The notes under the pieces were generated by a model. That model was not told the origin of the DNA. It worked only from the letters and a program-made list of their open reading frames with translations, and did no database searches. A program made the position numbers and the translations under genes. DNA of 63,556 nt, filler included, from Collodictyon triciliatum (Eukaryota), in NCBI GenBank assembly GCA_043381765.1. It is 11 parts of 11 records of this genome, joined end to end, with 100 filler letters (N's around TTAATTAATTAA, not from the genome) between each part and the next. Parts side by side here need not be neighbours in the genome. Positions count along the whole stretch, not along the records: positions 24,876 to 30,991 come from JBHJMP010004698.1; 10 more parts are not named here. The stretch is one strand, 5' to 3'. Positions 6,112-62,469 of the stretch are shown piece by piece. Numbering within the stretch: the stretch's first letter is position 1; each line of letters begins with the position of its first letter.

Positions 6112-6220
6112 CCAACAAAANNNNNNNNNNNNNNNNNNNNNNNNNNNNNNNNNNNNNNNNNNNNTTAATTAATTAANNNNNNNNNNNNNNNNNNNNNNNN
6201 NNNNNNNNNNNNNNNNNNNN

Positions 6221-10639: not shown

Positions 10640-12080
10640 TCAGGCGATGTAAGTACGAATAAAATCAAAGCAGCGCTCCAAGTGCTCCTCGCTTTCAGGA
10701 ATGTGCCTATGGAATAAATGCCAAGTATGAAAGACGTTGGAGTAAACGTCCACTTGGATTTTAGCGTCTTTTGCCTCGCCTAGTTTCAAACTCTGAAAGA
10801 CCAGACTGTCATCCAGAAATACTTCATCATCAGCAACAACCACCAAGACCGGAGAGCAGGAATTATCCCACGGCCCGTACATGGCATTGACCGACGGGTC
10901 TCTCGTGTCATAGCGTTGGGCTGCTTTCTTAAAGACTCTCTTTACGGTTTCCCCGTTTAATGCACAATCCAAGTCCGCGTTGCGCTCATAAGAGTCTCCT
11001 TGCGCCGCCAAATCTATTCCAGGCGACAACAAAACGCAACAAACAGGCATCTGAACACCAATATGCGCACTTGCATCGTTTCCCGGAATACCTTGTCTTT
11101 GTTGATGTAAAATGCGTTGGATGGAAAGCAAACACAGGCCCCCACCGGCGCTGTCTCCAATAAGGACGACCTTAGCATGTTGTTGAGATGCGTATTGGAG
11201 AGCCTCAACAACATCAGTCACAGACTCGGCAATGGATGATTCTGGTGCCTGTGGAAAAGATGAGCAGCTGGAAATTATGATACAGCTTAAAGCTTCATAC
11301 ATATGCGTATTATATCTATAAATAATCATTTGTTTGATAATTCTATGTGTCTGCGGGGAGAGACCCTACCAATCTGTATTGAGGAAAATAGACAGGGCAA
11401 CTGAGACGTCGCGATAATGTCTGTGCGAATCCATGGTAAGCAGAGAAATCTCCCGATACAAACCCCCCTCCATGAACATACACAACGCAGTACTCCGAAA
11501 TGCTTTTTGCCTCATCTAGAGACAAGGTATTCTTTGCAGCACAATATAGGCGAATCAAAGGGCAATGTCCGAGAGAGATGAGGGAGATTTCCTCCGTCTC
11601 ATTCTCGCCCCCACTATCGGGAGGACAAACCAGTGCTAAGAAAGGTTGCCGTATTTGCTCCACTTGGTCGCTTTGATGGTCTCTGTATCGACGAAAGAAG
11701 CGCCGCCATCTGCTCATAGGCCCAGATACGGGTGATGAACGCGAAGTCGTGTGGATTTGCAAAGAAGAGGGGAGGCAGACTCGGTCGAGATATATCTCAC
11801 TTTGGTCGATACTCGGTTGGCTTGTCTGATGCTCCACGGAAGGTGGCTTTGGTGTGAAAAACGACTCATTCTTCGAGTGAAAGGATTGGATAATCCTGTG
11901 ATATACATCCTCTGTGAGAAGTGAGGATTCTGACGAATGTCGGGGTGGCGATAAGAGGCAGTCTCGGACTTGCAGCTGCATGTGATTCAGACTGACGAAT
12001 GCTGTGGTGAAGAAGCGACGCAGTAGAGATGGCCGTAATGAGCCGTCCCATTGTATCGAATCCACACCCGAGTGTCTCAT
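10640..12080 (-). CDS. Alpha/beta hydrolase, hormone-sensitive-lipase family esterase
   Basis: VYVHGGGF oxyanion motif, QYRL/intron/APE, GDSAGG nucleophile, DEVFLDD acid and FHTW histidine. Intron about 11250-11371; the 5' end is uncertain. Confidence 0.9.
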
Positions 12081-12440
12081 CAGGGTGCTGCCCTCGAGGC
12101 GACGTGTTCTGGTATGAGAATGAAAAGAAGCTGTAGCGGGAATGTTTTTTATGTTTTTTATGTTTTTTTGTGTTTTTTTATGTTTTTTTATGTTTTTTTA
12201 TGTTTTTTATGTTTTTTTATGTTTTTTTATGTTTTTTTATGTTTTTATGTTTTTTTATGTTTTTTTATGTTTTTTATGTTTTTTTATGTTTTTTTATGTT
12301 TTTTTATGTTTTTTTATGTTTTTTTATGTTTTTTTATGTTNNNNNNNNNNNNNNNNNNNNNNNNNNNNNNNNNNNNNNNNNNNNTTAATTAATTAANNNN
12401 NNNNNNNNNNNNNNNNNNNNNNNNNNNNNNNNNNNNNNNN

Positions 12441-18460
<6,020 letters not shown>

Positions 18461-18660
18461 GTTTCTTTAAATCATATTTAAATTCATGTATGCTTTTTTT
18501 TTTTTTTTTTTTAATTTTTCTTTTCAATTTTGTGCAAAATTTTGGGTCTTGAACCTTTTNNNNNNNNNNNNNNNNNNNNNNNNNNNNNNNNNNNNNNNNN
18601 NNNTTAATTAATTAANNNNNNNNNNNNNNNNNNNNNNNNNNNNNNNNNNNNNNNNNNNNA

Positions 18661-21600
18661 ACCCATGCTGAAACTCATACTGAAACTCAACCTGAAACCC
18701 ATGCTGAAACCCATGCTGAAACCCACGCTGAAACTCATGCTGAGGCTCACGCTGAAACTCATACTGAAACCCACGCTGAAACTCAACCCGAAACTCATGC
18801 TGAAACTCATACTGAAGAGAAGGTTCAAGCTCAACCTGAAACCCATGCTGAAACTCATGCTGAAACTCATGCTGAAGAAAAGGTTCAAGCCCACGCTGAA
18901 ACCCATGCCGAAACTCAACCCGAAACCCATGCTGAAGAGAAGGTTGAAACCCACGCTGAAACCCATGCTGAAACTCAACCCGAAACCCATAGTGAAGAGA
19001 AGGTTGAAACTCATGCTGAAACCCATGCTGAAACCCATACTGAAACTCATACTGAAACCCATGCTGAAGAAAAGGTTGAAGCCCATGCTGAAACCCATGC
19101 CGAAGAAAAGGTTGAAACTCATGCTGAAACCCATGCCGAAGAAAAGGTTGAAACTCATGCTGAAACCCATGCTGAAACCCATGCTGAAACCCACGCTGAA
19201 ACCCATGCTGAAACCCATGCTGAAACTCAACCTGAAACCCATGCTGAAACCCACGCTGAAACTCACGCTGAAACTCATACTGAAACCCACGCTGAGACCC
19301 GTGCTGAAACCCATACTGAAACTCATACTGAAACCCATGCTGAAGAAAAGGTTGAAACTCATGCTGAAACCCATGCTGAAGAGAAGGTTGAAACCCATGC
19401 TGAAACCCACGCTGAAACCCACGCTGAAACTCAACCTGAAACCCACGCTGAAACCCACGCTGAAACTCATGCTGAAACCCATGCTGAAACTCATACTGAA
19501 ACTCAACCTGAAACCCATGCTGAAACCCATGCTGAAACCCACGCTGAAACTCATGCTGAGGCTCACGCTGAAACCCACGCTGAGACCCGTGCTGAAACCC
19601 ATACTGAAACTCATACTGAAACCCATGCTGAAGTAAAGGCTGAGACTCATGCTGGAACCCACGCTGAAGAAAAGGTTGAAACCCATGCTGAGACCCATGC
19701 TGAAACCCACGCTGAAACCCACGCTGAGACCCACGCTGAAACCCATGCTGAAACCCATGCTGAAACCCACGCTGAAACTCATGCTGAAACTCATACTGAA
19801 ACTCATACTGAAACTCATACTGAAACTCAACCTGAAACCCATGCTGAAACCCACGCTGAAACTCAACCTGAAACCCACGCTGAAACCCACGCTGAAACTC
19901 ATGCTGAAACTCATACTGAAACTCATACTGAAACTCAACCTGAAACCCATGCTGAAACCCACGCTGAAACTCATACTGAAACTCATACTGAAACTCAACC
20001 TGAAACCCATGCTGAAACCCACGCTGAAACTCATGCTGAGGCTCACGCTGAAATCCACGCTGAGACCCGTGCTGAAACCCATACTGAAACCCATGCTGAA
20101 GAAAAGGTTGAAACTCATGCTGAAACCCATGCTGAAGAGAAGGTTGAAACCCATGCTGAAACCCATGCTGAAACCCACGCTGAAACTCATGCTGAAACTC
20201 ATACTGAAACTCAACCTGAAACCCATGCTGAAACCCACGCTGAAACTCATGCTGAAGCTCATGCTGAAGAGAAGGTTGAGACCCATGCTGAAACCCATGT
20301 TGAGACCCATACTGAAACCCATGCTGAAGAAAAGGTTGAAACTCATGCTGAATCTCATGCTGAAACCCACGCTGAAACCCACGCTGAAACCCATGCTGAA
20401 ACTCAACCTGAAACCCACGCTGAAACCCACGCTGAAACCCACGCTGAAACTCATACTGAAACCCACGCTGAGACTCAACCTGAAACCCATGCTGAAACCC
20501 ACGCTGAAACCCATGCTGAAACTCATGCTGAAGAGAAGGTTGAAACTCATACTGAAACCCATGCTGAAACTCAACCTGAAACCCACGCTGAAACTCATGC
20601 TGAAACTCATGCTGAAACCCATGCTGAAACCCATGCTGAAACCCACGCTGAAGCTCAACCTGAGACCCATGCTGAAACACGCGGTGAAGCCCATGCTGAA
20701 ACCCGCGGTGAAGCCCACGCTGAAACCCATGCTGAAACCCATGCTGAAACTCATGCTGAAGAGAAGGTTGAAACTCATGCTGAGACCCATGCTGAAACCC
20801 ATGCTGAAACTCACGCTGAAAACCATGCTGAAACTCATGCTGAAACTCATGCTGAAACTCACGCTGAAACTCATACTGAAACTCACGCTGAAGCTCATAC
20901 TGAAGAAAAGGTTGAAACTCAACCTGAGACCCATGCTGAAGCTCATACTGAAGCCCATGCTGAAACCCAACCTGAGACTCATGCTGAAACCCATGCTGAA
21001 GAAAAGGTTGAGAGCCATGCTGAAACTCATGCTGAAGAAAAGGTTGAAATTCATGCTGAAATTCGTACTGAAACCCACGCTGAAGAAAAGGTTGAGACCC
21101 ATGTTGAAACCCACGCTGAAACCCACGCTGAAACTCATGCTGAAACTCACGCTGAAACTCACGCTGAAACTCACGCTGAAACTCATGCTGAGACCCAGGC
21201 TGAAACCCACGCTGAGACCCAGGCTGAAACCCATGCTGAGACCCATACTGAGGCTCACGCTGAAACTCATGCTGAAACCCACGCTGAGACCCACGCTGAG
21301 ACCCAGGCTGAAACCCATGCTGAAACCCATGCTGAAACCCATACTGAGGCCCATACTGAAACCCATACTGAAACTCATGCTGAAACCCATGCTGAAACCC
21401 ATGCTGAAACTCATGCTGAAGAGAAGGTTGAAACCCATGCTGAAGAGAAGGTTGAAACCCATGCTGAAACCCACGCTGAGACCCATACTGAGGCTCACGC
21501 TGAAGAAAAGGCTGAAACTCAACCCGAAACCCATAGTGAAGAGAAGGTTCAAGCTCAACCTGAAACCCATGCTGAAACTCATACTGAAACTCATGCTGAA

Positions 21601-23910
21601 ACTCATGCTGAAACTCATGCTGAAACTCATAGTGAAGAAAAGGTTGAGACTCACGCTGAAACCCATGCTGAAGAAAAGGTTGAGAGCCATGCTGAAACTC
21701 ATGCTGAAGAAAAGGTTGAAACTCATGCTGAAATTCATACTGAAACCCACGCTGAAGAAAAGGTTGAGACCCATACTGAAACCCACGCTGAAACTCACGC
21801 TGAAACTCATGCTGAAACTCACGCTGAAACTCATGCTGAAACTCATGCTGAGACCCAGGCTGAAACCCACGCTGAGACCCAGGCTGAAACCCATTCTGAG
21901 ACCCATACTGAGGCTCACGCTGAAACCCATACTGAAACCCACGCTGAGACCCACGCTGAGACCCAGGCTGAAACCCATGCTGAGACCCATGCTGAAGAGA
22001 AGGTTGAAGCTCAACGCGAAACCCACGCTGAAAAGGTTGAGACCCATACTGAAACCCACGCTGAGACCCATGCTGAAGAGAAGGTTGAAACCCATGCTGA
22101 AACCCACGCTGAGACCCATACTGAGGCTCACGCTGAAACCCATGCTGAAACTCATGCTGAAGAGAAGGTTGAAACCCATGCCGAGACCCACGCTGAAGGG
22201 AAGGTGGAAACCCATGCTGAGACCCACACTGAAGCTCATACTGAAGAGAAGGTTGAAACACATGCTGAGACTCATGCTGAAACCTATGCAGAAGCTCAAC
22301 CTGAAACCCATGCTGAAACTCACGCTGAAGCTCAACCTGAAACCCATGGTGAAACCCACACTGAAGCTCATACTGAAACCCATGCTGAAGAGAAGGTTGA
22401 GACCCACGCTGAAGAGAAGGCTGAAACCCACGCTGAAACCCACGCTGAAACCCACGCTGAGACCCATGCTGAAGAGAAGGTTGAAACCCATGCTGAAACC
22501 CATGCTGAAACTCACGCTGAGACCCATACTGAGGCTCACGCTGAAGAAAAGGCTGAAACCCATGGTGAAACCCACACTGAAGCTCATGCTGAAACCCACG
22601 CTGAAGAAAAGGTTGAGACCCATGCTGAAACTCACGCTGAAACCCACGCTGAAGAAAAGGTTGAGACCCACGCTGAAACTCACGCTGAAACCCATGCTGA
22701 AACTCACGCTGAAGAAAAGGTTGAAACTCAACCTGAAACTCAACCTGAAACCCATGCTGAAACCCATGCTGAAGAGAAGGTTGAAACTCATGCTGAAGCT
22801 CATACTGAAGAAAAGGTTGATACCCAACCTGAAACTCAACCTGAAACCCATGCTGAAGAGAAGGTTGAAACTCATGCTGAAACCCACGCTGAGACCCATG
22901 CTGAAACCCACGCTGAAGAAAAGGTTGAAACTCATGCTGAAACCCATGCTGAAACCCATGCTGAAACCCATGCTGAAACCCATGCTGAAGAGAAGGTTGA
23001 AACTCATGCTGAGGCTCATGCTGAAACCCACGCTGAAACTCAACCTGAAACTCAACCTGAAACTCATCCTGAAACCCATACTGAAACCCATGCTGAAGAG
23101 AAGGTTGAGAGCCATGCTGGAACCCATGCTGAGACCCACGCTGAAGCTCATGCTGAAACCCATGCTGAAACTCATGCTGAAGAGAAGGTTGAAACTCATA
23201 CTGAAACCCATGCTGAAACCCACGCTGAAGAGAAGGTTGAAGCTCATGCTGGAACCCATGCTGAGACCCACGCTGAAGCTCATGCTGAAACCCATGCTGA
23301 AACTCATGCTGAAACTCAACCTAAAACCCACGCTGAAACCCACGCTGAAACTCATACTGAAACTCACGCTGAAACTCATGCTGAAGCCCATGCTGAAGCC
23401 CATGCTGAAGCCCATGCTGAGACTCACGCTGAAACTCATGCTGAAGCCCATGCTGAAACCCATGCTGAAAGCCATACTGAAGAGAAGGTTGAAACCCATG
23501 CTGAAACTCATGCTGAAGAGAGGGTTGAAACTCATGCTGAAACCCATGCTGAAACCCACGCTGAGACCCAACCTGATGAAAAGGTTGAGAGCCATGCTGA
23601 AACCCATGTTGAGACCCACACTGAAGAGAAGGTTGAAACCCATGCTGAAACTCACGCTGAAACCCACGCTGAAACTCATACTGAAACCCATGCTGAAACC
23701 CATGCTGAAACTCATGTTGAGGCTCATGCTGAAACCCAACCTGAAATCCAACCTGAAACTCATGCTGAGGCTCATGCTGAAACCCATGCTGAAACTCATG
23801 TTGAGGCTCATGCTGAAACCCAACCTGAAATCCAACCTGAAACCCATACTGAAGCTCATGCTGAAACCCAACCTGAAACCCATGCTGAAACTCATGCCGA
23901 AGGAAAGGCT
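18661..23910 (+). repeat. Coding minisatellite, 12-bp unit (GAAACCCATGCT and variants), roughly 435 units
   Basis: Units encode ETHA, ETHT, ETQP, EAHA and EEKV. Variation is mostly at third codon positions, and the one indel seen (near 22030) is 3 nt. Confidence 0.97.
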
Positions 23911-24366
23911 GAAGAGGATGTCCCGTCCAAAAAGCCATTGATGGTACACACGCTTGATTTCCTTGATGTCAAAGAGGCGGATGCATCACACGATGAGTTG
24001 TCTGACCGAAGAGAGTCACCTGCGTACCCAACGCAGACTGTACAGGTGAGTAGCAATCAATCAGAGCCTCGCCAGGTCGTCGACGAGGACACTGATAACC
24101 AACCAGAGAAGCCTACAAAAGACACCAATGATGACCCATTCGATGACAGTTTGGACAAGTTATTGAGCGACGTTGCAGATACCAAGCTCGACTTCGAAGA
24201 TTCTCATCCAGTCACGTCAGCAAGCGGAGAGCCGCCAAAGAGACCCGAAACGCCGAAGAAAGAGCCCACACCAAAAAAGGCTGAGACGCCGAGGAAACAA
24301 AGTACCCATCAATCACCAAAAGCGAGCCAAGATGAACGAGCTCGCAAGCTGAGTGCTAGTGTATGA
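18661..24366 (+). CDS. 5'-truncated giant Glu/Thr/His/Ala tetrapeptide-repeat protein (>=1,901 aa)
   Basis: The frame from 18661 (ACC CAT GCT GAA...) has no stop until TGA at 24364-24366 and is the same frame as track ORF 22204-24366. The repeat runs into a unique acidic/Pro/Lys-rich C-terminus of about 150 aa. Confidence 0.8.
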   Translation, partial: THAETHTETQPETHAETHAETHAETHAEAHAETHTETHAETQPETHAETHTEEKVQAQPETHAETHAETHAEEKVQAHAETHAETQPETHAEEKVETHAETHAETQPETHSEEKVETHAETHAETHTETHTETHAEEKVEAHAETHAEEKVETHAETHAEEKVETHAETHAETHAETHAETHAETHAETQPETHAETHAETHAETHTETHAETRAETHTETHTETHAEEKVETHAETHAEEKVETHAETHAETHAETQPETHAETHAETHAETHAETHTETQPETHAETHAETHAETHAEAHAETHAETRAETHTETHTETHAEVKAETHAGTHAEEKVETHAETHAETHAETHAETHAETHAETHAETHAETHAETHTETHTETHTETQPETHAETHAETQPETHAETHAETHAETHTETHTETQPETHAETHAETHTETHTETQPETHAETHAETHAEAHAEIHAETRAETHTETHAEEKVETHAETHAEEKVETHAETHAETHAETHAETHTETQPETHAETHAETHAEAHAEEKVETHAETHVETHTETHAEEKVETHAESHAETHAETHAETHAETQPETHAETHAETHAETHTETHAETQPETHAETHAETHAETHAEEKVETHTETHAETQPETHAETHAETHAETHAETHAETHAEAQPETHAETRGEAHAETRGEAHAETHAETHAETHAEEKVETHAETHAETHAETHAENHAETHAETHAETHAETHTETHAEAHTEEKVETQPETHAEAHTEAHAETQPETHAETHAEEKVESHAETHAEEKVEIHAEIRTETHAEEKVETHVETHAETHAETHAETHAETHAETHAETHAETQAETHAETQAETHAETHTEAHAETHAETHAETHAETQAETHAETHAETHTEAHTETHTETHAETHAETHAETHAEEKVETHAEEKVETHAETHAETHTEAHAEEKAETQPETHSEEKVQAQPETHAETHTETHAETHAETHAETHSEEKVETHAETHAEEKVESHAETHAEEKVETHAEIHTETHAEEKVETHTETHAETHAETHAETHAETHAETHAETQAETHAETQAETHSETHTEAHAETHTETHAETHAETQAETHAETHAEEKVEAQRETHAEKVETHTETHAETHAEEKVETHAETHAETHTEAHAETHAETHAEEKVETHAETHAEGKVETHAETHTEAHTEEKVETHAETHAETYAEAQPETHAETHAEAQPETHGETHTEAHTETHAEEKVETHAEEKAETHAETHAETHAETHAEEKVETHAETHAETHAETHTEAHAEEKAETHGETHTEAHAETHAEEKVETHAETHAETHAEEKVETHAETHAETHAETHAEEKVETQPETQPETHAETHAEEKVETHAEAHTEEKVDTQPETQPETHAEEKVETHAETHAETHAETHAEEKVETHAETHAETHAETHAETHAEEKVETHAEAHAETHAETQPETQPETHPETHTETHAEEKVESHAGTHAETHAEAHAETHAETHAEEKVETHTETHAETHAEEKVEAHAGTHAETHAEAHAETHAETHAETQPKTHAETHAETHTETHAETHAEAHAEAHAEAHAETHAETHAEAHAETHAESHTEEKVETHAETHAEERVETHAETHAETHAETQPDEKVESHAETHVETHTEEKVETHAETHAETHAETHTETHAETHAETHVEAHAETQPEIQPETHAEAHAETHAETHVEAHAETQPEIQPETHTEAHAETQPETHAETHAEGKAEEDVPSKKPLMVHTLDFLDVKEADASHDELSDRRESPAYPTQTVQVSSNQSEPRQVVDEDTDNQPEKPTKDTNDDPFDDSLDKLLSDVADTKLDFEDSHPVTSASGEPPKRPETPKKEPTPKKAETPRKQSTHQSPKASQDERARKLSASV

Positions 24367-24769: not shown

Positions 24770-24875
24770 TCTCCTNNNNNNNNNNNNNNNNNNNNNNNNN
24801 NNNNNNNNNNNNNNNNNNNTTAATTAATTAANNNNNNNNNNNNNNNNNNNNNNNNNNNNNNNNNNNNNNNNNNNN

Positions 24876-27325
24876 GAGACTGAGACTGAGACTGAGACTG
24901 AGACTGAGACTGAGACTGAGACTGAGACTGAGACTGAGACTGAGACTGAGACTGAGACTGAGACTGAGACTGAGGTTGAGATTGAGATATAGGCTGTTCT
25001 AGTGTGACAGACTTCATCGCAGATTCTGACTCGGATATCGTCATTATGACATTTTTGTCGAGAATTTCCTCTACTAAAATTCTTTCGGTATGCAAATGTT
25101 TTTTCTTCAATTCAATTTTTGTGTATCTTAATTTCGCGGGTAATTGAATATTTGATTCATTCTGCTCGCCAACAGGCAAGTATGGAACTCTGCCTGCGAA
25201 ACTCCCACTCACAAAATCAAAAGAATTACTGGAGTAATTTTTCTTTCTGTCATTTTTTGTGCTGGCCTTACTTCGGTCCCGTATTTTGTCAGCTCCTGGA
25301 AAGATCTCTTCATGACTCGAACATATGTGATTACATCTTTTTACCCCAAATCCTATGTATCCTTTTACACCAAAAACGAGTGTAAGTTTCATGTCTACTA
25401 TAATGTATAAGGTATAAATACAAAACCTACCCCGCTGTGCAGGCGAACAGTTCGCTTTGGGTAAATCACAGTACGGTTCTGTGTGATGTTTTTGGCGTAT
25501 TCCAAAGGATGAGACATGTGACTCTATTTTTTCATAACTTTGCTGGTGTTTGTGCCCAATAACTTGCAGGTGATATGGTGAATTGTGTGTCACTTTTTTT
25601 AATAATGTGAACAGTTTCGTACTTTTGAGGGATTGAATAAAAAATATAGCCTTGGTTTCTACTTTCTGCTGAGGAGTTCGAGCAGTGGATGTTTTTTCTT
25701 TATATGCTATAATTAGTTAAGTCAGTGTTTGCATTCCCCTGATGAATTACTATTTTTATTGAGTTATTAGTTTACAAAATGGCTAACTGCAGTATTCCTT
25801 CGGGAATGTTGATAACATTGGATATCTATCAGCAAGGGAAGTAGGTAAGCAGTTACCTTTTTTGACCCATTTTTCAATTACTATATTATAATCGGGAAGT
25901 TGAACTTTAATTTCGGCATTGTACTGTCGGCAAATTTGAAATATCTATTCGTTGGTATACATTAAAGTTTCATCCTGTTTTGAGGCTAAAAAATGATAAA
26001 AATTATGATATGTTGTGCAAAAAAAAAAAGATCATGGAGTCCACACCTGCTGGGGCCATATTCTCCTTTAAAGATATATTTAAAACAATTAAAATTAGAA
26101 GATATATGTGTATAAATGCAAAATACAAGATATGAAGCATGGGTAAAATAAAACCTAATCCAAAATTTATAAGCGATGTATCCCTTGAGATAAAATTTTA
26201 GTCTGCTTGGTATGCAAGTGTGCGAAACTCTAAAGAATTCTGATTTTGCGTGTGTCACATGATAATCTAAGGAATTAAATTGCTTTTATTGACTTAAATT
26301 GAAATGTAAGAAGATCGAAGCTGATTGTGTTGGTGATCGGATAGATGACAATAGTAAAAGAAAAGGTATTGTTTCCTGACCTTTATGACTCTGAATATGC
26401 TGCTTCTTGGGGTTGTTCATATATTTAGAATATATATTTTGTAAAAATTGAGAATTCAAAAAATATTTTAAAAAAGCTTAAAACTAAACGTTATCATCAT
26501 GTTATTTTAGCATACCAAATCGTATGAATCAACTACCTCTTTTACCCAGTGAGGATTTCGTTCTTCTCTTATTCGAATATTTGAATCAAGTTTGTTCGTG
26601 GAAGCCCTGGAAATATTTCTATATTGTGCATCTTTCTTAAGCAACTTTTTTAGGTCGTAAGTATTTCTATCTGGTGGATAAACTATCTTTGCTTTTTCTA
26701 AAGTCATAATAATTGTTTCTATGGTACTATTTGATGTTCCTTTTTGAGTGTGCCCCGTCTTCGGTAGATTCTCATCAGAATAGCAGAAAAATGATTTTAT
26801 GTCAGGCGGTGAAATCATATCTTTTCGTGATTTTTTTGATATGTCTGCCCCATCTAATTTCTTCTGACATCGATTTGTGTATGTAAGTGTAAAAACCACA
26901 GGTTGACTGCGCCCAACACTCTCATCGCTTAACCTCGTATTTTTTGCCGTACTTGCATTGGATAGTAAACGGTATTCATTCTCATGTGCATGTTTTAGAT
27001 TAAAGCCGTCAATATAACTTGCTTTTCCAGTTGATAGTAATCGAGAATAGTCAGGTAGACATTTTCTGTTCCCAGGGGGTGATATTTTAACCAGGAAGTA
27101 GCCACGCATCAAGCTGTCGCCGCTACTTTTGGAGTTGCAGTTTGCTTGGGTGGGCTGAGTCTTTCGATCAGCGCGTACGTTTAGGAACATGCCCCAACAA
27201 TTCTTGAGACATATTTTCACACTTCCTCCTTGAGGATCGAGGCTCTCTTTTTCGAAAAGGAAGGCACAAAGGAACACAATAACAAGCAGGCGAATTCTCC
27301 CTGTCCAAGGACGTCCTGCAGCCAT
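24876..27325 (-). CDS. Hypothetical protein(s) with an N-terminal hydrophobic segment; exon structure unresolved
   Basis: A 272-codon ORF at 26507-27325 begins MAAGRPWTGRIRLLVIVFLCAFLF. An open frame at 24876-25593 ends in a (QS)n repeat at the scaffold edge. No family recognised. Confidence 0.35.
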
Positions 27326-27599
27326 CTTTTCCAGAAGCGAAGTATCTGCCGTATTTTGCAGGGTCAGCAGATCATCGACAATGACAAAAAAAAAAAAAAA
27401 GGAATATCAGGCCGCTTCTCTTTGCCAAGTGCCGTACTGTGCTGCCTCCTGGTGACGCATTCACACACGATGTACGATCACATCGGTTGAGCTTCTTGGT
27501 TATTTGTTGTTGTTGGGACTTGAAATGGGTTCTTCAGATCTGGATCAATGTAACCTTTTCTAATTGTGGATTTGATGCAACCACTTTGTTTTTTATTTT

Positions 27600-28230
27600 G
27601 TTCAACTAGAAGGGGTATACCAATCCTTCGATTGGTAAACCTGGTGCGTTTTTTTTTTTTTTATTGCTTCTTTCGATTTGTGCAAGATGCTGGAGGTGTT
27701 GGCTTTGGTTCGCTAGTCATCGTTTACATGGACGCTACTTGGTGGCTGGTTGGCGGAGAAGTAGTCGTTAATCAGGATTTGCATCCTGCGGTTTGGCCTG
27801 TGGCCTGGGACTTGTGCTTGCGTGAGAGACAGGGCGAGTTTGAATCTCATCCATCTATCTTCCACATGTCTCTTCTCGAAGGGCCTGATTAGTAGAGAAC
27901 GTGCAGGTGGCAAAGAAAGTTGTTGAGGAAAGAGATTCGTATGATGGCATCCAGCCTATTGTCAGGAGTGGGTGGCTGACTGTTGAATCTTACTTTGCGT
28001 GAGTATATGCGCGCTATCCACATAGTCCATAGCAAATGACCTCGCGTCACTGCCCAGAATGTTTTTGCATCTGGACGCAGTTGTTGCAGAGGCCCGAATA
28101 TCGCCTGGATTGGGCCAACAGCCGCAGCCGGTAAACCTGGTGCGCTAGTACCCAAGGTCTCACCACTTTTTTTTCGCAAAGGTCGTGTAGTGGTGAAGGA
28201 TGCCAGGAAAGACCCAACAGCCATTTTTTT
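27600..28230 (-). ncRNA. Candidate Fanzor omegaRNA scaffold (about 28230-28130 plus 27633-27600), interrupted by a LINE insertion
   Basis: Lies immediately 3' of the Fanzor ORF. Stem TCACCACT/AGTGGTGA (28160-28167 with 28189-28196); hairpin TACCAATC-GAAG-GATTGGTA (27618-27637); possible GGGTA/TACCC and CTAG/CTAG pairings across the insertion point. Confidence 0.55.
27649..28129 (-). mobile_element. 5'-truncated non-LTR retrotransposon (L1/Tx1-like) fragment, 481 bp
   Basis: Perfect 15-bp direct repeat GGTAAACCTGGTGCG at 27634-27648 and 28130-28144. A minus-strand A14 tail (27649-27662) containing AATAAA abuts one copy. The peptide AIFG...FWAVTRGHLLWTMWIAR...F resembles the ORF2 C-terminal WxxWxxR motif. 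Confidence 0.85.
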
Positions 28231-28249
28231 AGGGTTAGGTGTGTCCATT

Positions 28250-30116
28250 TTTTGAAGGATAAAAAGAACTTTCTTGAGTATATATTATTAGCGCTGTTAA
28301 AGTCCCTTGTCAAGAATACACTTTGTTTGCCTTCTGAGCGATTGCATTTTTTACACATGAGACATCTATACACTTTTTTGTATTTCCTTTCAGTGTCATA
28401 TATTCCAGTTCGTTTTCGAAGTTGCAGCACATCTTGGAGGTTCTAAATTCATCTACGCTAATTGTTTCAAAACGTTTAGATACTATTTTTCGTAATCCTC
28501 TTCTGATTGTTGGCATAGAACGCTTCATCTGAGATTTTCTGCTCCAGCCTCCACACGCCAGTACAACATCCTTGCCAAATGTCTTTTCGAATCGGTCCAT
28601 TAACAATTGTTCACTTATTTTTGTATTAGCATACTGTCTCCATCTCATCTTTCGAAAAGCCACTTGTTCATAAAATCTGCAAAGTTCTACCTGGTATCTT
28701 GATTTCATAGATACATATTTTCGATTTTTTTTTCATAATCGACCGTGCATGAATTGTGTTTGCTCAGTTGTGTCTCTAAATCGATTAAAGATACTCTTGA
28801 AGCCTCAAATTGCTGATTCTCCTCAAAAGTCATGTGAACAAAATAAATAGCACTTTATAAACTTGTTGCCATGCATATCCCTGAAGCATTGTACTTTTCT
28901 TTCTTTTTCTCGCGCAAGAGTATTTTGTGATTTTTAAGATATTTGCTATCATGTGTTATTTGATGTGTTGTGTAACGTAATTTCTTACCTGCCTCATCCA
29001 CTATGTAAACCAAATTAAACTTGCCTGCGTCCAGCCCAACTATTTTTTTGTCGCTAATAAAGATAACTGCTCTTCGGAAAGTTCATCTATATAGACATAT
29101 TCTTGGTTTTTTTGATTATTTTTTATTTTTGAATTTGAAATACCTTTCTTTTCAAACAATAATGACATCGCCAAGCCGTCTGTTTGTATCATGTATTTAA
29201 AATTGTAGTCTCTTTGATGATAGACCCTCTTCTTCATTTCAAAGAAGTCATCCCATTGGGTCTCATTGAATCCTGATATATTATTCATTAATGATACTTT
29301 TCCAGATAACACTAACCTACCTATCAAACATGACGTATCTAGAGTAATATGACATGGTATATTGTTAGTTCCTATAGGGATTGGCTGAAACAGTTTTGTT
29401 CAAATATCCTCAAAAATGAGATTCATGTAAATCAGACATGGAATGTACTTATTTGGATTGACTTTGACGTCATATTCGATACCATTTACAATATCGCTGG
29501 TTATGATATGGTGCAAATGCGTTATAACCCATTCTTTATATTGTTCCGGTATTTCGAGCTTCTTGAAGATGGCTTTTTTTAAACTAACGTAACTCTGCCT
29601 TTTAATGCCTTCCGTAATATTCTCATCTTTAGGAAATGTTTGATTTATAAAGCGCAGTAATCTCTTTACAAAATGTTCCTTAATGTTCTTATGATAAGCT
29701 GTTAACATTTGCTTCGCCAAGTACGGTAGTACATGAGACAGTCTAACCAACGGAAAGCGTTCTTCTCGAGATAAAAAGAATCGAAAATCATTGAGATAAA
29801 AAGTCATCATGTCATCTCTCGTTTCTGGTTTTTTTAAAACTTGCGGGTCTATCTTGTGAAACTATTCCGACTGTTTTCAAAGCGTACGAAAAAAAAACAT
29901 TTCATCGATTGTTGGGAGGTGTTGTGATTTCAATATGTAACATCTTGCAAACAGATAAGTGTCGGTAACCAAATCATGACACAATAAAACCGTATCGTTG
30001 ATTTCGTCATAGTCATCCGCATTCTTTACAATCGACTTTGGAGATGATTTCACATTTCGATAGTCTGGTTTTACAGACTTATGATTCTCAGACTCAAGAT
30101 GTTTTCTTTTCTTCAT
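28250..30116 (-). pseudogene. Fanzor1: Fanzor1 (eukaryotic TnpB-like RNA-guided RuvC endonuclease), about 590 aa when reconstructed; disrupted
   Basis: Collinear motifs: MKKRKH (NLS-like), YHKNIKEHFVKRLLRFIN, YDVKVNP, KLFQPIP..IPCHITLDT, MIQTDG, RuvC-I IVGLDAGK, LETQLSKHNSCTVDY, FRKMRW, VLACGGWS, PTIRRGLRK, RuvC-II VDEFRTSKMCC, VYRCLMCKKC and RuvC-III TRDFNSANNI. One in-frame TGA (29400-29402) and about five frameshifts. Confidence 0.92.
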
Positions 30117-31627
30117 CTGAAAGTCTTTGGTTTACTTTTTCCTTTTGAAAACTACTGAGTTTTCATTTTTAATAAAACTTGAGTCTATTAGTCAATTTAA
30201 TAATAAAAAACAGCATCAAATCAATTTATGTAAAATTAAGCATCAACCGAGACCCTCAAAATATGCGCATTGTGGCAAACAAACACACAAAGTTTTTTTA
30301 TAAGTGATTTGAGACAAAACGCTGCGAGCCGATTCGGCGAGTTTGAAAGGGCGGCCGTATAGCCATTGTGATTGAAAGTCAACATATCGACCCCAAACAA
30401 CATGATTACCGCCGCAAGAGTGGACAGTATGCTTTTTTGAAATGCATGTTTGGTGGCAGGTTTATGGGGTGGGTTCTGTCTGGGCCAAGGCAACAGCTTG
30501 TTTGAAATTTTTGAATTTCTGAAGTATATTACATAAATGAGAAATAAAATGGAAATTAATTAAAGGAATAGAATGAGATTTTTTTATGTATTAACCTTAT
30601 TATATATTCTAAGTAAACTATTATATCATTCAGGTTGTTTCTTGGCATCATCAAGCTCCTGCTTTTCTGAATCCAGATTTAACTCGATGGTTGTCTGTGC
30701 AATAAACTGCTATATATGGATTCACTTTCGTTGTATAAAAAGTTTGTTGTGCCTTGAAAGGGATAAAACCAAGTTCGTCACAACCTTTGCAATGTAGTTT
30801 ATCCATTTACAGGCCGAATAAGACCGAAGAGAAAGGAAAAGAGAAAAAGAAAAAAAAGAAAATATGTCAAAATGAATGAAAAAGAAAAAGGGGAAGAGAA
30901 AAGAAAAGAAAAGAAAAGAAAAGAAAAGAAAAGAAAAGAAAAGAAAAGAAAAGAAAAGAAAAGAAAAGAAAAGAAAAGAAAAGAAAAGAAANNNNNNNNN
31001 NNNNNNNNNNNNNNNNNNNNNNNNNNNNNNNNNNNTTAATTAATTAANNNNNNNNNNNNNNNNNNNNNNNNNNNNNNNNNNNNNNNNNNNNTGGTTCCGT
31101 ACCACAGGCGCAAGTTTCGACTCAAAGGGGTACGACAAATAGGGAATATGAGCATTCTGCACCGATAATGGTGTGAGATTTGGCTAATCTTTTTGCATGT
31201 GACATGAAGCGTGATGATAATAGCAGGGTTTAGAGACATGAATGTAATTATACTGTATTTTCCATAATTATACTGGGAACAATCTGCAAATCTATGCCTA
31301 TATTCGTCTAAATTCCCAATTCCACGCCGCCGTTCCCAAGCCCGAGGCAATAAGTATCCGTGGGCTACAAAAACCTCCGCGACGTTTATATATTTTGCAT
31401 CAAGGAAACCTTGAGTATTGGGTCTTGGGGCATCATGGAATGCAAGGAAGTGAGACGGGGAAGATATCAACGAAACGAGAGCAACGGATACCCAGAGCAG
31501 CCCGGCCAGAAGGCCATTCCAAGTGCAGAAACAACAACCAAGATACCAACACTCATCCGGGCAAATCTCCTCTTCCCCCCTCATCCTAACCCTTACCCTA
31601 ATCCACAGCAAGCCAACCAGCCACCCC

Positions 31628-32365
31628 ATGAAGTCTGTCATCGCCGCTGTCATCCTGGCCCTTGTCGCCACCGCCGCCGCACTCCCCATCGAGCAAGGTA
31701 GCGCCCTTGACCAATCAGCCAACCGACACATAGACATAGACACATAGATATGGACATAGACACGTAGACACAATCGGCTGCTGACTATCGACCCATCCCG
31801 CCCCAGGAGAACTCGCAGACTACACCATCGGCTTCAGCTCCAACACAGACCCGCGCGGCACCGCCGTCGCATACGTCAACGCGGCCACCCGCACCCTGGA
31901 CATCACCATGTACAAGTACGAGGACACCACCATCCACAACGCCGTCGTATCCGCCATCCGCCGCGGAGTCCGCGTAAGCATACCTCTTTCGTACCCGCGC
32001 CAAGCAGTACCGCATATTCTGCACCGTACCTGCAAACATACGAGGCAGCACCTCACAGCCCGGCAAACATGCAGGTCCGCGCCATCGTCGACAACACCGA
32101 GGCTGGAGGAAAGGACTCGCTTGCCAAGGCCCTGGCCTCTGCCGGCGCAACTGTCCGCACCTGGTCCGGCGTCGGCAGCTTCGACAAGCTGCACTCAAAG
32201 TACTCCATCTATGACGGCGCAAAGGTCCTGACCGGCACCAACAACTGGACAAACTCTGGTGCAACCACAAACATGGAGGTGGTCATCACTTTCCAGGCTG
32301 CCACGGCCGTCGCCACCTTCCAGGGCAACTTCGAGACCCTCTTCTCCCAGGGGAAGGCCATCTAA
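31628..32365 (+). CDS. Secreted single-HKD phospholipase-D-family endonuclease (Nuc/Zucchini-like), 175 aa
   Basis: Exons 31628-31697, 31807-31973 and 32075-32365 splice in frame with GT-AG. Signal peptide MKSVIAAVILALVATAAA; LDITMYKY, AIRRGVRVRAIVD, LHSKYSIYD (HxKxxxxD), LTGTNNWT and TNME. Confidence 0.9.
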
Positions 32366-37080: not shown

Positions 37081-37533
37081 CGCATTAATAAATACACACA
37101 TACACACATACACACATACACACATACACACATACACACATACACACATACACACATACACACATACACACATACACACATACACACATACACAAATACA
37201 CAAATNNNNNNNNNNNNNNNNNNNNNNNNNNNNNNNNNNNNNNNNNNNNTTAATTAATTAANNNNNNNNNNNNNNNNNNNNNNNNNNNNNNNNNNNNNNN
37301 NNNNNTTTATTTTGTTTTATTTTGTTTTATTTTGTTTTATTTTGTTTTATTTTGTTTTATTTTGTTTTATTTTGTTTTATTTTGTTTTATTTTGTTTTAT
37401 TTTGTTGAATATTTATTGGTAAACGCTCTCACAGGTGGTTTTTTCTCATTTCAACGGCCTGTTGGAGAGAGTGGAGGGCATCGGAAGCGAGCAAAGAGAG
37501 AGCCCCACCAATGAGGCGTCAGGGCCCGCGGGT

Positions 37534-43187: not shown

Positions 43188-43518
43188 TGTGTGGGTGGTT
43201 CTAGGTGGAGGACGAAGAAGGTAGGGGAAGATAACTTAGGTCTCAACAAGGTTTGTATCCTGGGGTTATCTCCCAAGCTCAATAATCGTGTAGAAACATT
43301 ATTGGATCGCTGTTTATATTTTGGTTTTTTGGTTTTTTGGTTTTTTGGTTTTTTGGTTTTTTGGTTTTTTGGTTTTTTGGTTTTTTGGTTTTTTGGTTTT
43401 TTGGTTTTTTGGTTTTTTNNNNNNNNNNNNNNNNNNNNNNNNNNNNNNNNNNNNNNNNNNNNTTAATTAATTAANNNNNNNNNNNNNNNNNNNNNNNNNN
43501 NNNNNNNNNNNNNNNNNN

Positions 43519-43975: not shown

Positions 43976-44034
43976 ATGCTAGTTTCAATCTAATAATAAA
44001 ATAAAACCTTTTGTGGGCGAAGGGACGCAGCGCT

Positions 44035-46728
44035 ATGGCCGACCGCTCGTCAAGCGAAACCAGGCTTCTCGCCGAAGCCAAAGCAGCCGAAGGCAAAGTG
44101 TTTACTGGAAAGGGTGAACACAGCACCATCAGTTATACAACCGAGAAAGTTATTGGGAGCGGCTCTTTTGGAATCGTCTTTCAGGCCTCGGTTGTTGGGA
44201 CGGGCGAGATAGTGGCAATCAAGAAAGTTCTTCAAGACAGACGCTATAAGGTACCGCCATGCTTCTTTTCACATCTTAAATCATTCTACCTTTATATTTT
44301 GTCTTTTGTCTTTTGTCTTTTGTCTTTTGTCTTTTGTCTTTTGTCTTTTGTCTTTTGTCTTTTGTCTTTTGTCTTTTGTCTTTTGTCTTTTGTCTTTTGT
44401 CTTTTGTCTTTTGTCTCTCCGGGTTATTTAGCTTTATTACAAGTTTACTAATGCTATCATTTGTTCACTTATTCTTATTCTTATTGATTATAAGTTGAAC
44501 ACCACATTTGCAAAATTATTTAACAAGTTCTCTTCCCCAGCTTTTTCATTTTATTATTCCAATATATTTCTCATGACATTGATGATGTTCTGCTTCTATT
44601 GGGGGTTCCTCATGCACATGAAGCTAACATCTCAAATTGTACAGAATCGAGAGTTGCATATAATGAAAACACTAAATCATCCAAATGTTGTGACCTTGAA
44701 GCACTCATTTTACTCAAGTGGCGAAAAGGTTTTCAATATATCTATTTGCGATACCATACTTTTCTGAAAGATAATAGTAATATAAGATAGAAACGTATCA
44801 ATTTCCCGATGCCATCAATTAGATATTGAACTCCTTTAGTTCACGCGACTTTTTAAAAATCAATAATACGTGCATGTAATCAATAATCGAAATAAATTCA
44901 ACATAACCCTGCTAAGCGTTTATCTGCTTTCGCTCACACATTAAGAATACGATTTAATCAATATCATCATCCTTATGCTGCTATTCATGGTACAATTTCA
45001 TAGGCTGACGAGGTTTATCTGAACTTGGTTCTTGAGTATGTACCGGAAACGGTGTACAGAGTTTGTCGGCATTACACAAAAAGTCGCCAAGCCGTACCTA
45101 CGTTATTTATAAAGCTTTTCGGCTATCAGATGTGTCGCTCGCTTGCCTACTTACATGCTCAAGGTGTGTGCCATCGAGATATTAAACCTCAGAACATTCT
45201 CGTGGATTCACAATCGGGCGTTTGTAAGATATGTGACTTTGGCAGGTGTGTTAGTTAGTTGTTTTGTTATTATTTTTTTTTAAAAAAAATCCAATAAGTG
45301 CTGGACATTTTAGCGCGCTTATCTATGTTTGATTTATAAATGCTTTTCATTTGATTTTAATCGTTCATATAATCTTGTATGTTCTTTTCAGTGCAAAGAT
45401 GCTTGTGAAAGGAGAACCCAATATTGCATACATCTGCTCCCGATACTATAGAGCCCCAGAGCTTGTATTCGGTGCGACAGAATATACTAATTCGATAGGT
45501 ACTTATTTTACCAAGATATACTTCTCGAGATGTGATTATTACTCTTCATAAAAATGTATTTCGGTCTGTGATTTATATGCTTAAGTTAAAAAATCACTAT
45601 TAAAGAAGAAAAGAGAGAGAGAAAAAAAAAACAGGGGACTTGCTTTGTGCTTGGCTAATATAATGAAATAGATACCTGGTCAGTCGGGTGTGTAATCGCA
45701 GAGCTAATGACTGGCTCACCTATATTTCCCGGGGAAAATGGTACGGATCAACTCGTTGAAATTATCAAAATATTAGGCACACCATCACATGATGATGTGG
45801 CCAGCATGAACCCCAACTACACAGACCATAAGTTCCCTCAAGTCAAGCCTGTTCCATGGGCGAAGGTGTTTGGCATTCTTTTTTCTTCTTTTTTTTTTCG
45901 CTGGCAATAGTTATTTTTATTTATGTATTTATTCATGTATTTAATTTAATAAAAAAAAAAAACTTTTTTTAATGAGCCATCTTCATATTTCTTTTGGTAT
46001 CTTAACTCAGCCACCAACTCCGTTTCTTTTTTTTCTTTATGTATACCCTCTTTCTAATTTTACCGTATTTTCTCACACTTTTTTGAAACATAAAACAAAC
46101 AACCCCACACAAAATGTATCTTGCAACCACTTGTGATATCAGTTCCACTGCGAGAATCTCATGTTGGATTTCAGCACCCTTATTGCTCCTAAAATCTTTT
46201 AAAATGACGTAAGGTTTTTCGGCCGAAAACATCGCCTGAGGCCATCGACTTGATTTCCAACATGCTTCAATACAACCCTGAAAAGCGACTAACCCCCATC
46301 GAATGCATGATTCACCCGTTCTTTGACGAGCTACGGGATCCAAACACAAAGATGCCTGCTGGGATGCCGCTACCGCCCCTCTTCAATATGACTCCACCGG
46401 GTATCTCTTTGTTGATTACTTTTTCGCTCCGTCCTAGCCACAACTAAATCCCTCTATCGAAAAGCGCCATAATTCTCTTGTGATGAGGCTGTAGCCCTTT
46501 CGAATCACTTGCATATCGTATGTGTGGATTAATATCTTTTAATATGACAAAAAAAAGCATGCATCACAATCGCATATTTTGACAGAGCTTAAAGGAGCCA
46601 CGCCTGAGCAAATCCGTCGATTGATTCCTGATCACGCTGTACCACATCTGTCCATGTCCTTTCCCCAACTCATCAGTGCCGTTGCCTCTGGAAATTCCAC
46701 GGCTGCAGCAGGTTCCTCAATATCATAG
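44035..46728 (+). CDS. GSK3: Glycogen synthase kinase-3/shaggy-like kinase
   Basis: [83 protein letters not shown] and [10 protein letters not shown]. Confidence 0.97.
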
Positions 46729-49629: not shown

Positions 49630-50011
49630 NNNNNNNNNNNNNNNNNNNNNNNNNNNNNNNNNNNNNNNNNNNNTTAATTAATTAANNNNNNNNNNNNNNN
49701 NNNNNNNNNNNNNNNNNNNNNNNNNNNNNTTATCATTATCATTATCATTATCATTATCATTATCATTATCATTATCATTATCATTATCATTATCATTATC
49801 ATTATCATTATCATTATCATTATCATTATCATTATCATTATCATTATCATCCAAAATGAATACATAGCTGTTCGCCTTCCATGGCCCTGCAACCTCGTTC
49901 TTTGCATTTATAGCATTTTTCTTTGAGATTATCGCGAACGCTACAAACTCGTCTCGGGTACATTCACTTTGTTTCCTGACTTTTCTTTCGGTTGTGACTT
50001 TGCGCCAAAGG

Positions 50012-55355: not shown

Positions 55356-56796
55356 CACGATTGAAGAAAAAATGAATTTTTTTTAAAAAAAAAAAACAAA
55401 TCAATAAAGACACATCAAGATACACCAGAAAGTAGACCGAGAGAGAAAGTTTGCGAATGACAGGAAGTGTCAGGCACAACCCTTTTCGCCATAATCGCGC
55501 CGTTCGGTGACCAGGGAGTGAGAACGGAGACCATTTAGAATTGCCATTAAGGATCACACATACCCACGCGCAATGGCAAAACAAAGCCTGCAATTCACTT
55601 TATACCAGGAGGGGTATGCCAATCTTTGGCCAAACGCATCACGTTCTGGGATTGCGTGCTCAGCGTTAAGCAAACAAACAAAAAACAAACAAACAAAAAA
55701 CAAACAAACAAAAAACAAACAAACAAAAAACAAACAAACAAAAAACAAACAAAAAAACAAACAAACAAACAAACAAACAAACAAACAAACAAACAAACAA
55801 ACAAACAAACAAACAAACAAACAAACAAACAAACAAACNNNNNNNNNNNNNNNNNNNNNNNNNNNNNNNNNNNNNNNNNNNNTTAATTAATTAANNNNNN
55901 NNNNNNNNNNNNNNNNNNNNNNNNNNNNNNNNNNNNNNTTTTTGGTTTTTTTTTTGGTTCGTTTTCAAAAATATATAAAGAATCGGCTGGGCAGAAAAGA
56001 AAGTTTCGAGCTGGCAACAAGAGGGAAATGATCACCCAACGAATGTTACAGTATTGACAAGCAACAGCCCATGTTCGTTTTCTTTGCAGGACTTCATGCC
56101 ATGACAGGCCAGATGAGGATAGATAACTGCGCGTTAATCACATGCGTGTGCTTGTTTATCTCTACTGGTTATCACCGACTTTGCAGCCCGATCAACACGT
56201 TTGACTTCCGCCTCTCCTGCCACAAGCAACTTGGCAAAGCAGGTTGTCGCAACAAACAGATTATTCGAAGAAAGGAATTAGAGAAGAAAAAAATGCCATT
56301 CATTGAAAAATAGTATCTGTGGAATTTATGTTCAAAGAGGACAGTTTGGACACTTAGTCTTATTACGCCTCATCTTACTCGCCGAAGAAGTTCTAATATT
56401 AACTCCTAGTGATTAGGCTCCTGAAGCTCTGCGCTAATTCCAGGAGCCACGATTATCTCACCACATTCACCGGGCGGTTTGGGCTAAAGGCTTATTTGCT
56501 TGCTGACTCATTGGCTTTCGGTGGTACTACGGCTGCATCATTCTTTATTTTATCCTTCAGCCGCCAGAAGACGATATTCACTTTCTATTATCCCTCATTC
56601 TCCTCTATTTCCTTCACGAAACTACCATTCGCTCTGGTAGTCGATCGACAAACCGCAATAACCCGCAGCATTTCGAACATATACTCTGGCTTCTTGGAGG
56701 CGTGTGTTCTAATATGTTTAAAACAAAAAGGAAAAGGGAAAGAAAGAAAAGAAAAGAAAAGAAAAAGAACAACTAGCTTTGCTTGCGCCAAGTGGG

Positions 56797-61988: not shown

Positions 61989-62469
61989 TGGGGGGGTGGT
62001 GTTTTTTTTTTTTTTTTTTGCAGAATCGTCTTGGTAAAATATGCNNNNNNNNNNNNNNNNNNNNNNNNNNNNNNNNNNNNNNNNNNNNTTAATTAATTAA
62101 NNNNNNNNNNNNNNNNNNNNNNNNNNNNNNNNNNNNNNNNNNNNAAAGAAAAAAGAAAAAAGAAAAAAGAAAAAAGAAAAAAGAAAAAAGAAAAAAGAAA
62201 AAAGAAAAAAGAAAAAAGAAAAAAGAAAAAAGAAAAAAGAAAAGAAACATGGAGCTGTATGGAGGAGTGATACAACTTGTTCTCTTATTTGATTCCGACT
62301 CTTTTTTTTTTTTCAAGTTCTAGTACTTAATATCCACACCTGCAAACACGGCATCGCCATTCTCTCTTCTATCCTAAGCAAACTTGGGTTGGAGTTTGAT
62401 CCCATAAGTTAACAACTTTTTTCATATGTAAAAAAAGAATTCTGAATTTTTATTTTTTATTCCAAGGTG

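Follow-up and report, generated by a model that had tools for sequence, protein, structure and literature searches.

What was the gene that survives, in fragments, on the minus strand of a 63,556-nt stretch of DNA from Collodictyon triciliatum (assembly GCA_043381765.1; the whole stretch is called the window below), and could its product still be made? The fragments resemble Fanzors, which are eukaryotic RNA-guided nucleases under development as compact genome editors. Positions 28281-30116 (minus strand) very probably hold a Fanzor1 gene copy that has decayed into a pseudogene, in which the catalytic residues are kept while the reading frame is interrupted by stops and frameshifts.

The coding remains run from an ATG at 30114-30116, which comparison with the family profile marks as the start of the family protein, to the end of an RDFNSANNI motif. 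Read from stop to stop on the minus strand, they fall into seven collinear pieces, A to G. The family profile has 651 positions and was built from 80 representatives of 580-720 amino acids among the best 150 relatives; it was run against all six frames of the 63.5-kb window. Piece A (29880-30131) matches profile positions 3-73 (E 2.5e-13), piece B (29403-29861) positions 91-239 (E 1.2e-31), piece C (29043-29399) positions 243-364 (E 4.6e-35), piece D (28858-29082) positions 360-414 (E 3.4e-16), piece E (28708-28854) positions 413-434 (E 0.0083), piece F (28313-28732) positions 436-563 (E 6.5e-44), and piece G (28050-28442) positions 547-585 (E 4.7e-10). The seven pieces cover 583 of the 651 positions (3-585), in order and continuously. 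The next-best profile match anywhere in the window has an E value of only 0.27, so the similarity is far beyond chance and this is the sole copy in the window. A single frame accommodates pieces A to C and a second one D and E, with a net shift of -1 at each of the C->D, E->F and F->G transitions.

The pieces' own translations match solved Fanzor1 chains. Piece F is similar to the Parasitella Fanzor1 PpFz1 (9cf0, E 5.1e-10) and to SpuFz1 (8gkh, E 9.8e-5), and the N-terminal 359 residues, with X at the stops, match GtFz1 (9cer, E 5e-11), PpFz1 (9cf0, E 8.6e-10) and SpuFz1 (8gkh, E 3.1e-4). The window copy has the REC-like N-terminal part of about 360 residues, matching Fanzor1. A word-indexed search with piece F found P0001, a protein of 391 residues that is 44% identical to piece F and matches the structures of GtFz1, PpFz1 and SpuFz1 at E ~1e-16 each; P0001 carries the precomputed Pfam label PF26935. 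An exhaustive search with P0001 recovered 2917 cluster representatives at E<=1e-3, mostly of 600-700 residues. A 378-residue Fanzor1 relative, P0005, is named '6-pyruvoyl-tetrahydropterin synthase' in one source and looks mis-annotated. The nearest full-length relative is P0004 (634 residues), which is 32-65% identical to the individual pieces; these lie in order on its residues 16-588. It was on this intact relative, and not on the window copy, that the fold was compared. The AlphaFold model of P0004, computed from a 30-row alignment, has a predicted local distance difference test score (pLDDT) of 85.7, matches SpuFz1 with E 1.4e-30 and template-modelling (TM) scores of 0.77/0.81, and superposes on PpFz1 and GtFz1 too (Foldseek). 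The same model scores a TM of 0.24 against the mimivirus Fanzor2 and 0.21 against the ISDra2 TnpB; these values and the Fanzor1-matching N-terminal part speak against an identity as a compact IS607-type TnpB-like protein or a Fanzor2.

The catalytic Fanzor1 D...E...D is present at family-invariant positions (D372, E530 and D581 in P0004 numbering). GLDAG, the RuvC-I motif (29023-29037, minus strand as are all the motifs below), has its Asp codon at 29029-29031, on D372. CGGWS (28541-28555) stands at the canonical RuvC-II site, with its first Gly on invariant G496 and its Trp on W498; the aligned residues are GNWS in PpFz1 and GDWS in SpuFz1. The alternative Glu, 34 residues further on in alignment columns, belongs to VDEFRTS (28436-28456; Glu codon 28448-28450, on invariant E530; Ser on S534), which also contains the [TS][TS] pair and has its counterparts in IDEFRTS (PpFz1) and LDEYKTS (SpuFz1). 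RDFNSANNI, the RuvC-III motif (28281-28307), falls on R580, invariant D581 (Asp codon 28302-28304), N583 and invariant N587. A rearranged RuvC-II, in which Gly has taken the canonical Glu position and the alternative Glu follows downstream, is thus present. In Fanzors the RuvC-II Glu at the canonical site is described as swapped for Pro or Gly, with an alternative Glu downstream (Jiang et al. 2023), and G500 and E536 are given as Fanzor1-specific by Bao & Jurka (2013, PMC3627910). According to Saito et al. (2023, PMC10432273), E541, D383, N385 and D606 bind the Mg ions of SpuFz1; the Glu of VDEFRTS aligns with the E541 region.

Conservation extends well beyond the active site. In the 30-row alignment A1, whose invariant columns include D372, G496, E530, S534, D581 and N587, the window copy keeps 11 of the 13 invariant columns, D372, G496, E530 and D581 among them; P373, now A, and E399, now D, are the changed ones. 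Among the near-invariant columns 29 of 36 are kept, two are unaligned in the window copy, and C540, R396, R254, P211 and F438 have become F, I, G, T and N, respectively. The loss of C540 affects the first half of the zinc finger, CCNF (28418-28429), in which the second Cys is now Phe (profile consensus SklCskC vs SKMCCNF in the window); the second half, CKKC (28344-28355), is intact on near-invariant C564 and C567. Bao & Jurka (2013, PMC3627910) give a motif, D-X(125,275)-[TS][TS]-X-X-C4-X(5,50)-RD, which the window copy fits in the spacing of D, TS and RD (P0004 numbering 372, 533/534 and 580/581) and of which it has three of the four cysteines, as would be consistent with a decayed member. 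The N-terminus, MKKRKH (30099-30116), is basic, and the family profile likewise opens Lys-rich; MKKRKH is plausibly a nuclear-localisation signal, a predicted feature of the kind reported at the N-terminus of ~60% of Fanzors (Jiang et al. 2023).

A first-pass annotation of this DNA had proposed a Fanzor1 with a readable RuvC triad and rearranged RuvC-II, assembled from five collinear minus-strand fragments into a protein of about 590 residues. The identity, the triad and the rearranged site, the last in agreement with the two papers cited above for it, are all borne out, and each of the motifs that it listed (GLDAG, VDEFRTS, CKKC, RDFNSANNI, CGGWS and MKKRKH) was found in the minus-strand translation. 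The order of the fragments holds in the profile comparison and the length is close (564 residues in the trimmed pieces), but there are seven pieces rather than five. The pieces matched the family profile and, through P0004, the fold of SpuFz1, so the outcome that the annotation had named as counting against it did not arise.

The pieces are separated by four stops in frame and by three frameshifts, each a net -1 and adjacent to an A-run. A TGA at the A/B boundary (29877-29879) stands in a family column with G in 26, S in 14, C in 13 and T in 11 of 80 sequences, and four sense codons past it a TAG (29862-29864) falls in a column with a gap in 21, R in 18 and K in 9 of 80. Another TGA marks the B/C boundary (29400-29402), in a column with G in 27, E in 13 and K in 9 of 80; Trp is not among the six commonest residues in either TGA column. 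The D/E boundary is a TAA (28855-28857). This codon was compared with contigs from two public sequencing runs, X1 and X4, which represent two organisms of one study; all aligned contigs of both runs differ from the window at 28857, so they have no stop there. That other copies have a sense codon at the TAA could be taken to mean that the stops are read as amino acids, under a ciliate-type or Condylostoma-type code, since the difference could resemble a synonymous change if TAA encoded Gln. Against this, all three stop codons would require reassignment, the columns facing TGA are mostly Gly rather than Trp, the column facing TAG is mostly gap, Arg or Lys, and three frameshifts would persist regardless. 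We regard recoding as extremely improbable.

The frameshifts can be placed within narrow zones. The C->D shift lies at 29043-29058, with an A7 run at 29043-29049, where the profile matches of pieces C (to position 364) and D (from 360) overlap; the E->F shift lies at 28723-28733, with an A9 run at 28725-28733; and the F->G shift lies at 28372-28379, with an A6 run at 28374-28379 and an extra letter behind 28372 in two X1 and four X4 contigs. Because of the four stops, the three frameshifts and the lost zinc-finger cysteine, the window copy is no longer able to make the protein.

Copies of the element are abundant in X1 and X4. When copies were counted on 27900-30300, 412 contigs in X1 and 367 in X4 matched the element at 85-100% likeness; in X1 these divide into 29 at >=99%, 96 at 95-99%, 178 at 90-95% and 109 at <90%. 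The element is a diverged multi-copy repeat family in both runs. X2, a riverine metagenome, and X3 contain only a few short contigs, which give no basis for a habitat claim; stretches that have no cover in these two runs carry no weight here. Contigs of 151 nt in X2 and X3, at a depth of 2, are identical or nearly so to window positions 29486-29887, so the same or a very close copy occurs in environmental samples. In a search of sequencing runs, the best run shared at most 0.09 of the sampled words, and no RNA run was listed as containing the sequence; the label 'RNA?' that X1 and X4 bear is a guess. The 526 differences between the window and the other copies offer a view of how the copy has changed: among the 40 listed, 33 lie in the coding span at positions that set the window apart from all or nearly all contigs, and these are spread over codon positions 1/2/3 as 10/10/13 (chi-square p 0.76, from a small and pre-selected sample). 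Such a spread fits drift without selection.

The 3' region of the element has been disrupted in another way. At 27649-28129 (minus strand) lies the 481-bp 3' end of a 5'-truncated retrotransposon without long terminal repeats, a long interspersed nuclear element (LINE), with the tail of an open reading frame (ORF), an AATAAA and an A14 run. It is flanked by an exact 15-bp direct repeat, the target-site duplication, at 28130-28144 (upstream copy) and 27634-27648 (downstream copy). The 79-residue ORF of the LINE matches P0174 at 22 of 22 residues, directly after the zf-RVT domain of that protein (E 7.1e-9). In X1 and X4 the depth is 750-1750 over 27900-28142 compared with ~150-480 over the body of the Fanzor gene (4 to 10 times as high), and X1, X2 and X4 all show the same loose end at 28130. 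Some 165-175 nt separate the LINE insertion from the RD codon upstream of it, which is less than the 230-290 nt over which the related elements of giant viruses still extend past that codon; the insertion would therefore have split the part of the element that encodes the guide RNA. Between the RuvC-III motif and the LINE, positions 28145-28280 (minus strand) are where the C-terminal tail of the protein and the start of the guide-RNA region would be expected; the reading frames of this tail were compared by eye. In X1 and X4 alike, 28223-28289 is missing from the contig with the highest abundance. The word 'decayed', which the first-pass annotation had used, is therefore right and understated, as the zinc-finger cysteine loss and the LINE insertion come on top of the stops and frameshifts. 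Its suggestion that this is one copy of a family in the host holds for X1 and X4, with support that comes from those runs and not from this assembly.

Where are the intact relatives of such a gene? In IMG/VR, 506 of 523 candidate stretches encode relatives, and the 80 loci that were kept (L001-L080), many of them in giant-virus bins, all match the window pieces, with a mean identity of 39-44% in the ten best loci. One of them, L068, adjoins an RPB2 gene, and L001 adjoins a ribonucleotide reductase gene and a divergently oriented transposase of the DDE_3/HTH type. By protein likeness, the closest intact relatives are the Fanzor1 genes of giant-virus transposons. Relatives of the L001 transposase (DDE_3/HTH_28, upstream and on the opposite strand; L001:4638-5678 (-)) occur in 23 of the 80 viral loci, and a small ORF of ~100 residues, with no Pfam family, lies directly upstream of the Fanzor gene in 52 of the 80 (e.g. 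L068:5635-5937 (+)). The viral elements share a 3' block of ~120-165 nt with a sharp end at ...GGTGTAA, reaching from ~60 nt before the Fanzor stop codon to ~100 nt after it (alignments A2 and A3). It comprises a hairpin and a long-range helix, for which RNAalifold gives 15 pairs, 10 of them with compensatory changes on both sides; the block is probably the scaffold of the clade's guide RNA (omegaRNA). Elements of the PGv-1 type are giant-virus mariner-Fanzor1 transposons (Bao & Jurka 2013, PMC3627910), and this reading of the viral 3' block agrees with such elements.

In an unrooted FastTree phylogeny of 136 rows, a set of 68 rows with support 98 unites the window copy with every one of the 55 viral rows and with 12 metagenomic rows that bear no label. 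Since the tree is unrooted and its viral rows were selected by likeness to P0004, it shows kinship and not the direction of any transfer. The placement raises the question whether the contig that carries the gene is itself an integrated or co-assembled piece of a giant virus, or a contaminant, rather than host nuclear DNA proper: the closest intact relatives lie on giant-virus contigs, the window copy groups with every viral row, and the contig is an unplaced piece of 6.1 kb with no recognisable host gene. However, a LINE with a target-site duplication and poly(A) marks the contig as eukaryotic nuclear DNA, no viral gene was found on it, and even the ten best viral loci are only 39-44% identical to the window copy. 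Several hundred diverged copies, as seen in X1 and X4, would be expected of a genomic repeat family and not of a single integration, and the ends of the contig are microsatellite-rich, like those of the adjoining contigs in the window. A viral or foreign origin of the contig is accordingly unlikely, and we treat the pseudogene as part of a eukaryotic nuclear genome.

Several results weigh against a decayed Fanzor1 element in the window. Pfam searches with the seven pieces gave sub-threshold matches only (RuvC_1, E 0.012; OrfB_IS605, E 0.041). The ~66 last profile positions (585-651), which should represent the C-terminal tail, had no match in the window, 28145-28280 included. A covariance model of the viral omegaRNA scaffold found nothing better than E 1.7 on the window contig, away from the tail; nhmmer had no match on the tail without the LINE, and the folding z-score of that tail is only -1.7. 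No transposase was found on the contig, and the best tblastn match of the L001 transposase in the window has an E value of 0.4. No inverted repeats of >=14 nt surround the gene, and no firm ends of the element were found. Each of the three frameshifts is a -1 next to an A-run, a pattern that homopolymer sequencing errors would leave too. At the F->G site, finally, most of the depth shares the state of the window, the extra letter accounting for 17.6 of 249.5 in X1; because of this, part of the family may derive from a copy that was already broken.

The position of the shifts beside A-runs bears on whether the gene might be alive, its breaks being homopolymer assembly errors, short introns or programmed frameshifts. 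The shifts are indeed adjacent to A7, A9 and A6, the catalytic D/E/D and 11 of 13 invariant columns survive, and other copies have a sense codon at the TAA (all aligned X1 and X4 contigs) or the extra letter at F->G (six contigs). Yet four in-frame stops of all three kinds are not explicable by homopolymer errors, and the pieces abut, with continuous profile coverage and no room for introns. Conserved columns have changed (C540 to F, P373 to A, R396 to I), a LINE sits within the 3' region, and the listed differences from other copies show no third-position excess. A living gene is thus very unlikely, and a decayed copy remains the reading that we adopt.

The viral elements also guided the search for the outer parts of this decayed copy. 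A by-eye likeness between the LINE-less tail and the viral RNA scaffold was dropped, as the covariance model, nhmmer and the folding score did not support it. In blastn the tail had nothing better than E 0.04, off register, against 64 viral tails, and the viral right end ...GGTGTAA was not found in the window by the covariance model or nhmmer. The omegaRNA scaffold of the window copy may be too diverged for recognition or may have been lost. The small upstream ORF of the viral loci likewise has no counterpart in the window (best E 0.4). A weak candidate pair of terminal inverted repeats (TIRs) consists of 27569-27597 on the 3' side and 30202-30222 on the 5' side, joined by exact inverted matches of 11 and 10 nt (E 0.041 and 0.16) in AT-rich sequence; the element between these unconfirmed arms, with the LINE removed, would measure ~2.16 kb. 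The summed depth in X1 drops from 182 to 20 between the bins 30087-30167 and 30168-30248; at least three contigs extend past 30222, to 30299, which weighs against the 5' candidate TIR as the end of the element.

The copy number and the viral kinship suggest a wider reading, which we offer tentatively and hold to be rather less than an even bet: that the copy belongs to a large and possibly mobile Fanzor1 family of a freshwater eukaryote, forming a separate lineage beside the giant-virus mariner-Fanzor1 clade and including, in that host and its relatives, naturally intact siblings with an omegaRNA of their own. No intact sibling was found in the metagenome and viral contig collections. In the metagenome collection, no relative was among the 203 stretches that six peptide patterns picked out, and an exact 24-mer had 0 matches; among the viral contigs the exact 24-mer again had 0 matches and piece-B patterns matched 12 stretches, with no relative.

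The history of the window copy may be pictured as follows. Within the TnpB/Cas12 RuvC nucleases, Fanzor1 is the branch that occurs in eukaryotes and giant viruses. The live ancestor, a protein of ~630 residues, would have bound an omegaRNA whose template was the 3' end of its transposon; the analogy of SpuFz1 and other tested Fanzors suggests that it would have cut matching DNA with its D/E/D site in dependence on a target-adjacent motif (TAM) and would have entered the nucleus by means of its basic N-terminus. The position of the guide RNA in the window element is one that we infer. Decay has brought the stops, the frameshifts and the loss of the cysteine, and the 5'-truncated LINE has inserted in the 3' region, with the catalytic residues kept. 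What is left is one member of a repeat family, on a eukaryotic nuclear contig that is short and unplaced.

The make-up of the window limits how its other contents may be read. It is a chain of unlinked contigs of ~6.1 kb, slightly decreasing in size and joined by ten linkers of the form N44-TTAATTAATTAA-N44, at 6121-6220, 12341-12440, 18560-18659, 24776-24875, 30992-31091, 37206-37305, 43419-43518, 49630-49729, 55839-55938 and 62045-62144. The contig that bears the Fanzor gene is the 6116-bp segment 24876-30991, bounded by the linkers at 24776-24875 and 30992-31091, and because the linkers join separate contigs, physical linkage to the gene is limited to this segment; genes read across linkers are not physically linked, and such context is not real. 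None of the other ORFs on the Fanzor contig, the one at 26510-27406 included, has a Pfam family or a homologue, and neither a tRNA nor an Rfam match was detected there.

The remaining contigs of the window carry other gene pieces and a long repeat. A gene of the Abhydrolase_3 family (HGGG-type esterase/lipase; 10640-12197, minus strand) is divided between two overlapping frames (11343-12197 and 10640-11365), a split that may be due to a frameshift, an intron or an error. A 5.7-kb low-complexity repeat (18616-24366), open in several frames, occupies nearly an entire contig; one frame, of 1916 residues, is built from units resembling T-E-T-H-A-E, and further frames are rich in Leu/Lys or in Phe/Ser. 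We also identified host-type gene pieces, namely a PLD-like domain (31760-32365), the start of a protein kinase (44005-44250), a DEAD-box helicase exon (51099-51320) and a GCIP-like protein (57856-58509), all on the plus strand. The nearest protein-atlas clusters of the GCIP-like protein are all eukaryotic, giving an assignment no finer than 'Eukaryota'.

A dead copy adds little to work on genome editors; its value is that of a pointer. It directs attention to a host lineage in which a Fanzor1 family has reached high copy number, and to the giant-virus transposons that contain the nearest intact relatives of this family. The multi-copy host family and the kinship to these transposons are useful leads, along which intact siblings, the guide RNA and the direction of exchange can be searched for. 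If the copy does belong to a separate host lineage of the kind tentatively proposed above, host and virus would form a pair in which the exchange of an RNA-guided nuclease transposon could be traced. Decayed Fanzor copies as such are already in print, as are Fanzor1 genes of protists and giant viruses and the rearranged catalytic site.

Among known systems, the Tc1/mariner (IS630)-Fanzor1 elements of giant viruses (PGv-1, L001-L080) have the nearest intact proteins and belong to the same supported clade of the unrooted tree as the window copy; the family profile has the basic N-terminus and all the motifs in common with it. They differ in possessing a DDE_3 transposase, the small upstream ORF and the 3' RNA scaffold, none of which was found in the window. 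Fanzor2 (ApmFz2, 9b0l) and TnpB (ISDra2, 8h1j) share the RuvC fold and the zinc-ribbon core but are without the long N-terminal REC region and match the P0004 model far more weakly. The solved Fanzor1 proteins SpuFz1 (8gkh, 9ceu-9cez), PpFz1 (9cf0-9cf3) and GtFz1 (9cer-9cet) have the full-length domain order in common with the window copy, together with the D/E/D RuvC site, Gly at the canonical RuvC-II position, Glu in DE(F/Y)(R/K)TS, the TS-x-x-Cys zinc finger and the RD pair; unlike them the window copy is a pseudogene, and P0004 is 19-23% identical to those structures (Foldseek). A parallel to its state of decay is offered by the partial copies and 'ghost' elements of Spizellomyces punctatus described by Saito et al. 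(2023, PMC10432273), where 19 of 42 loci are full length and mobile elements have inserted in or beside some copies. Those copies belong to another host and another subfamily, but they are, as here, members of a multi-copy family in which many are partial.

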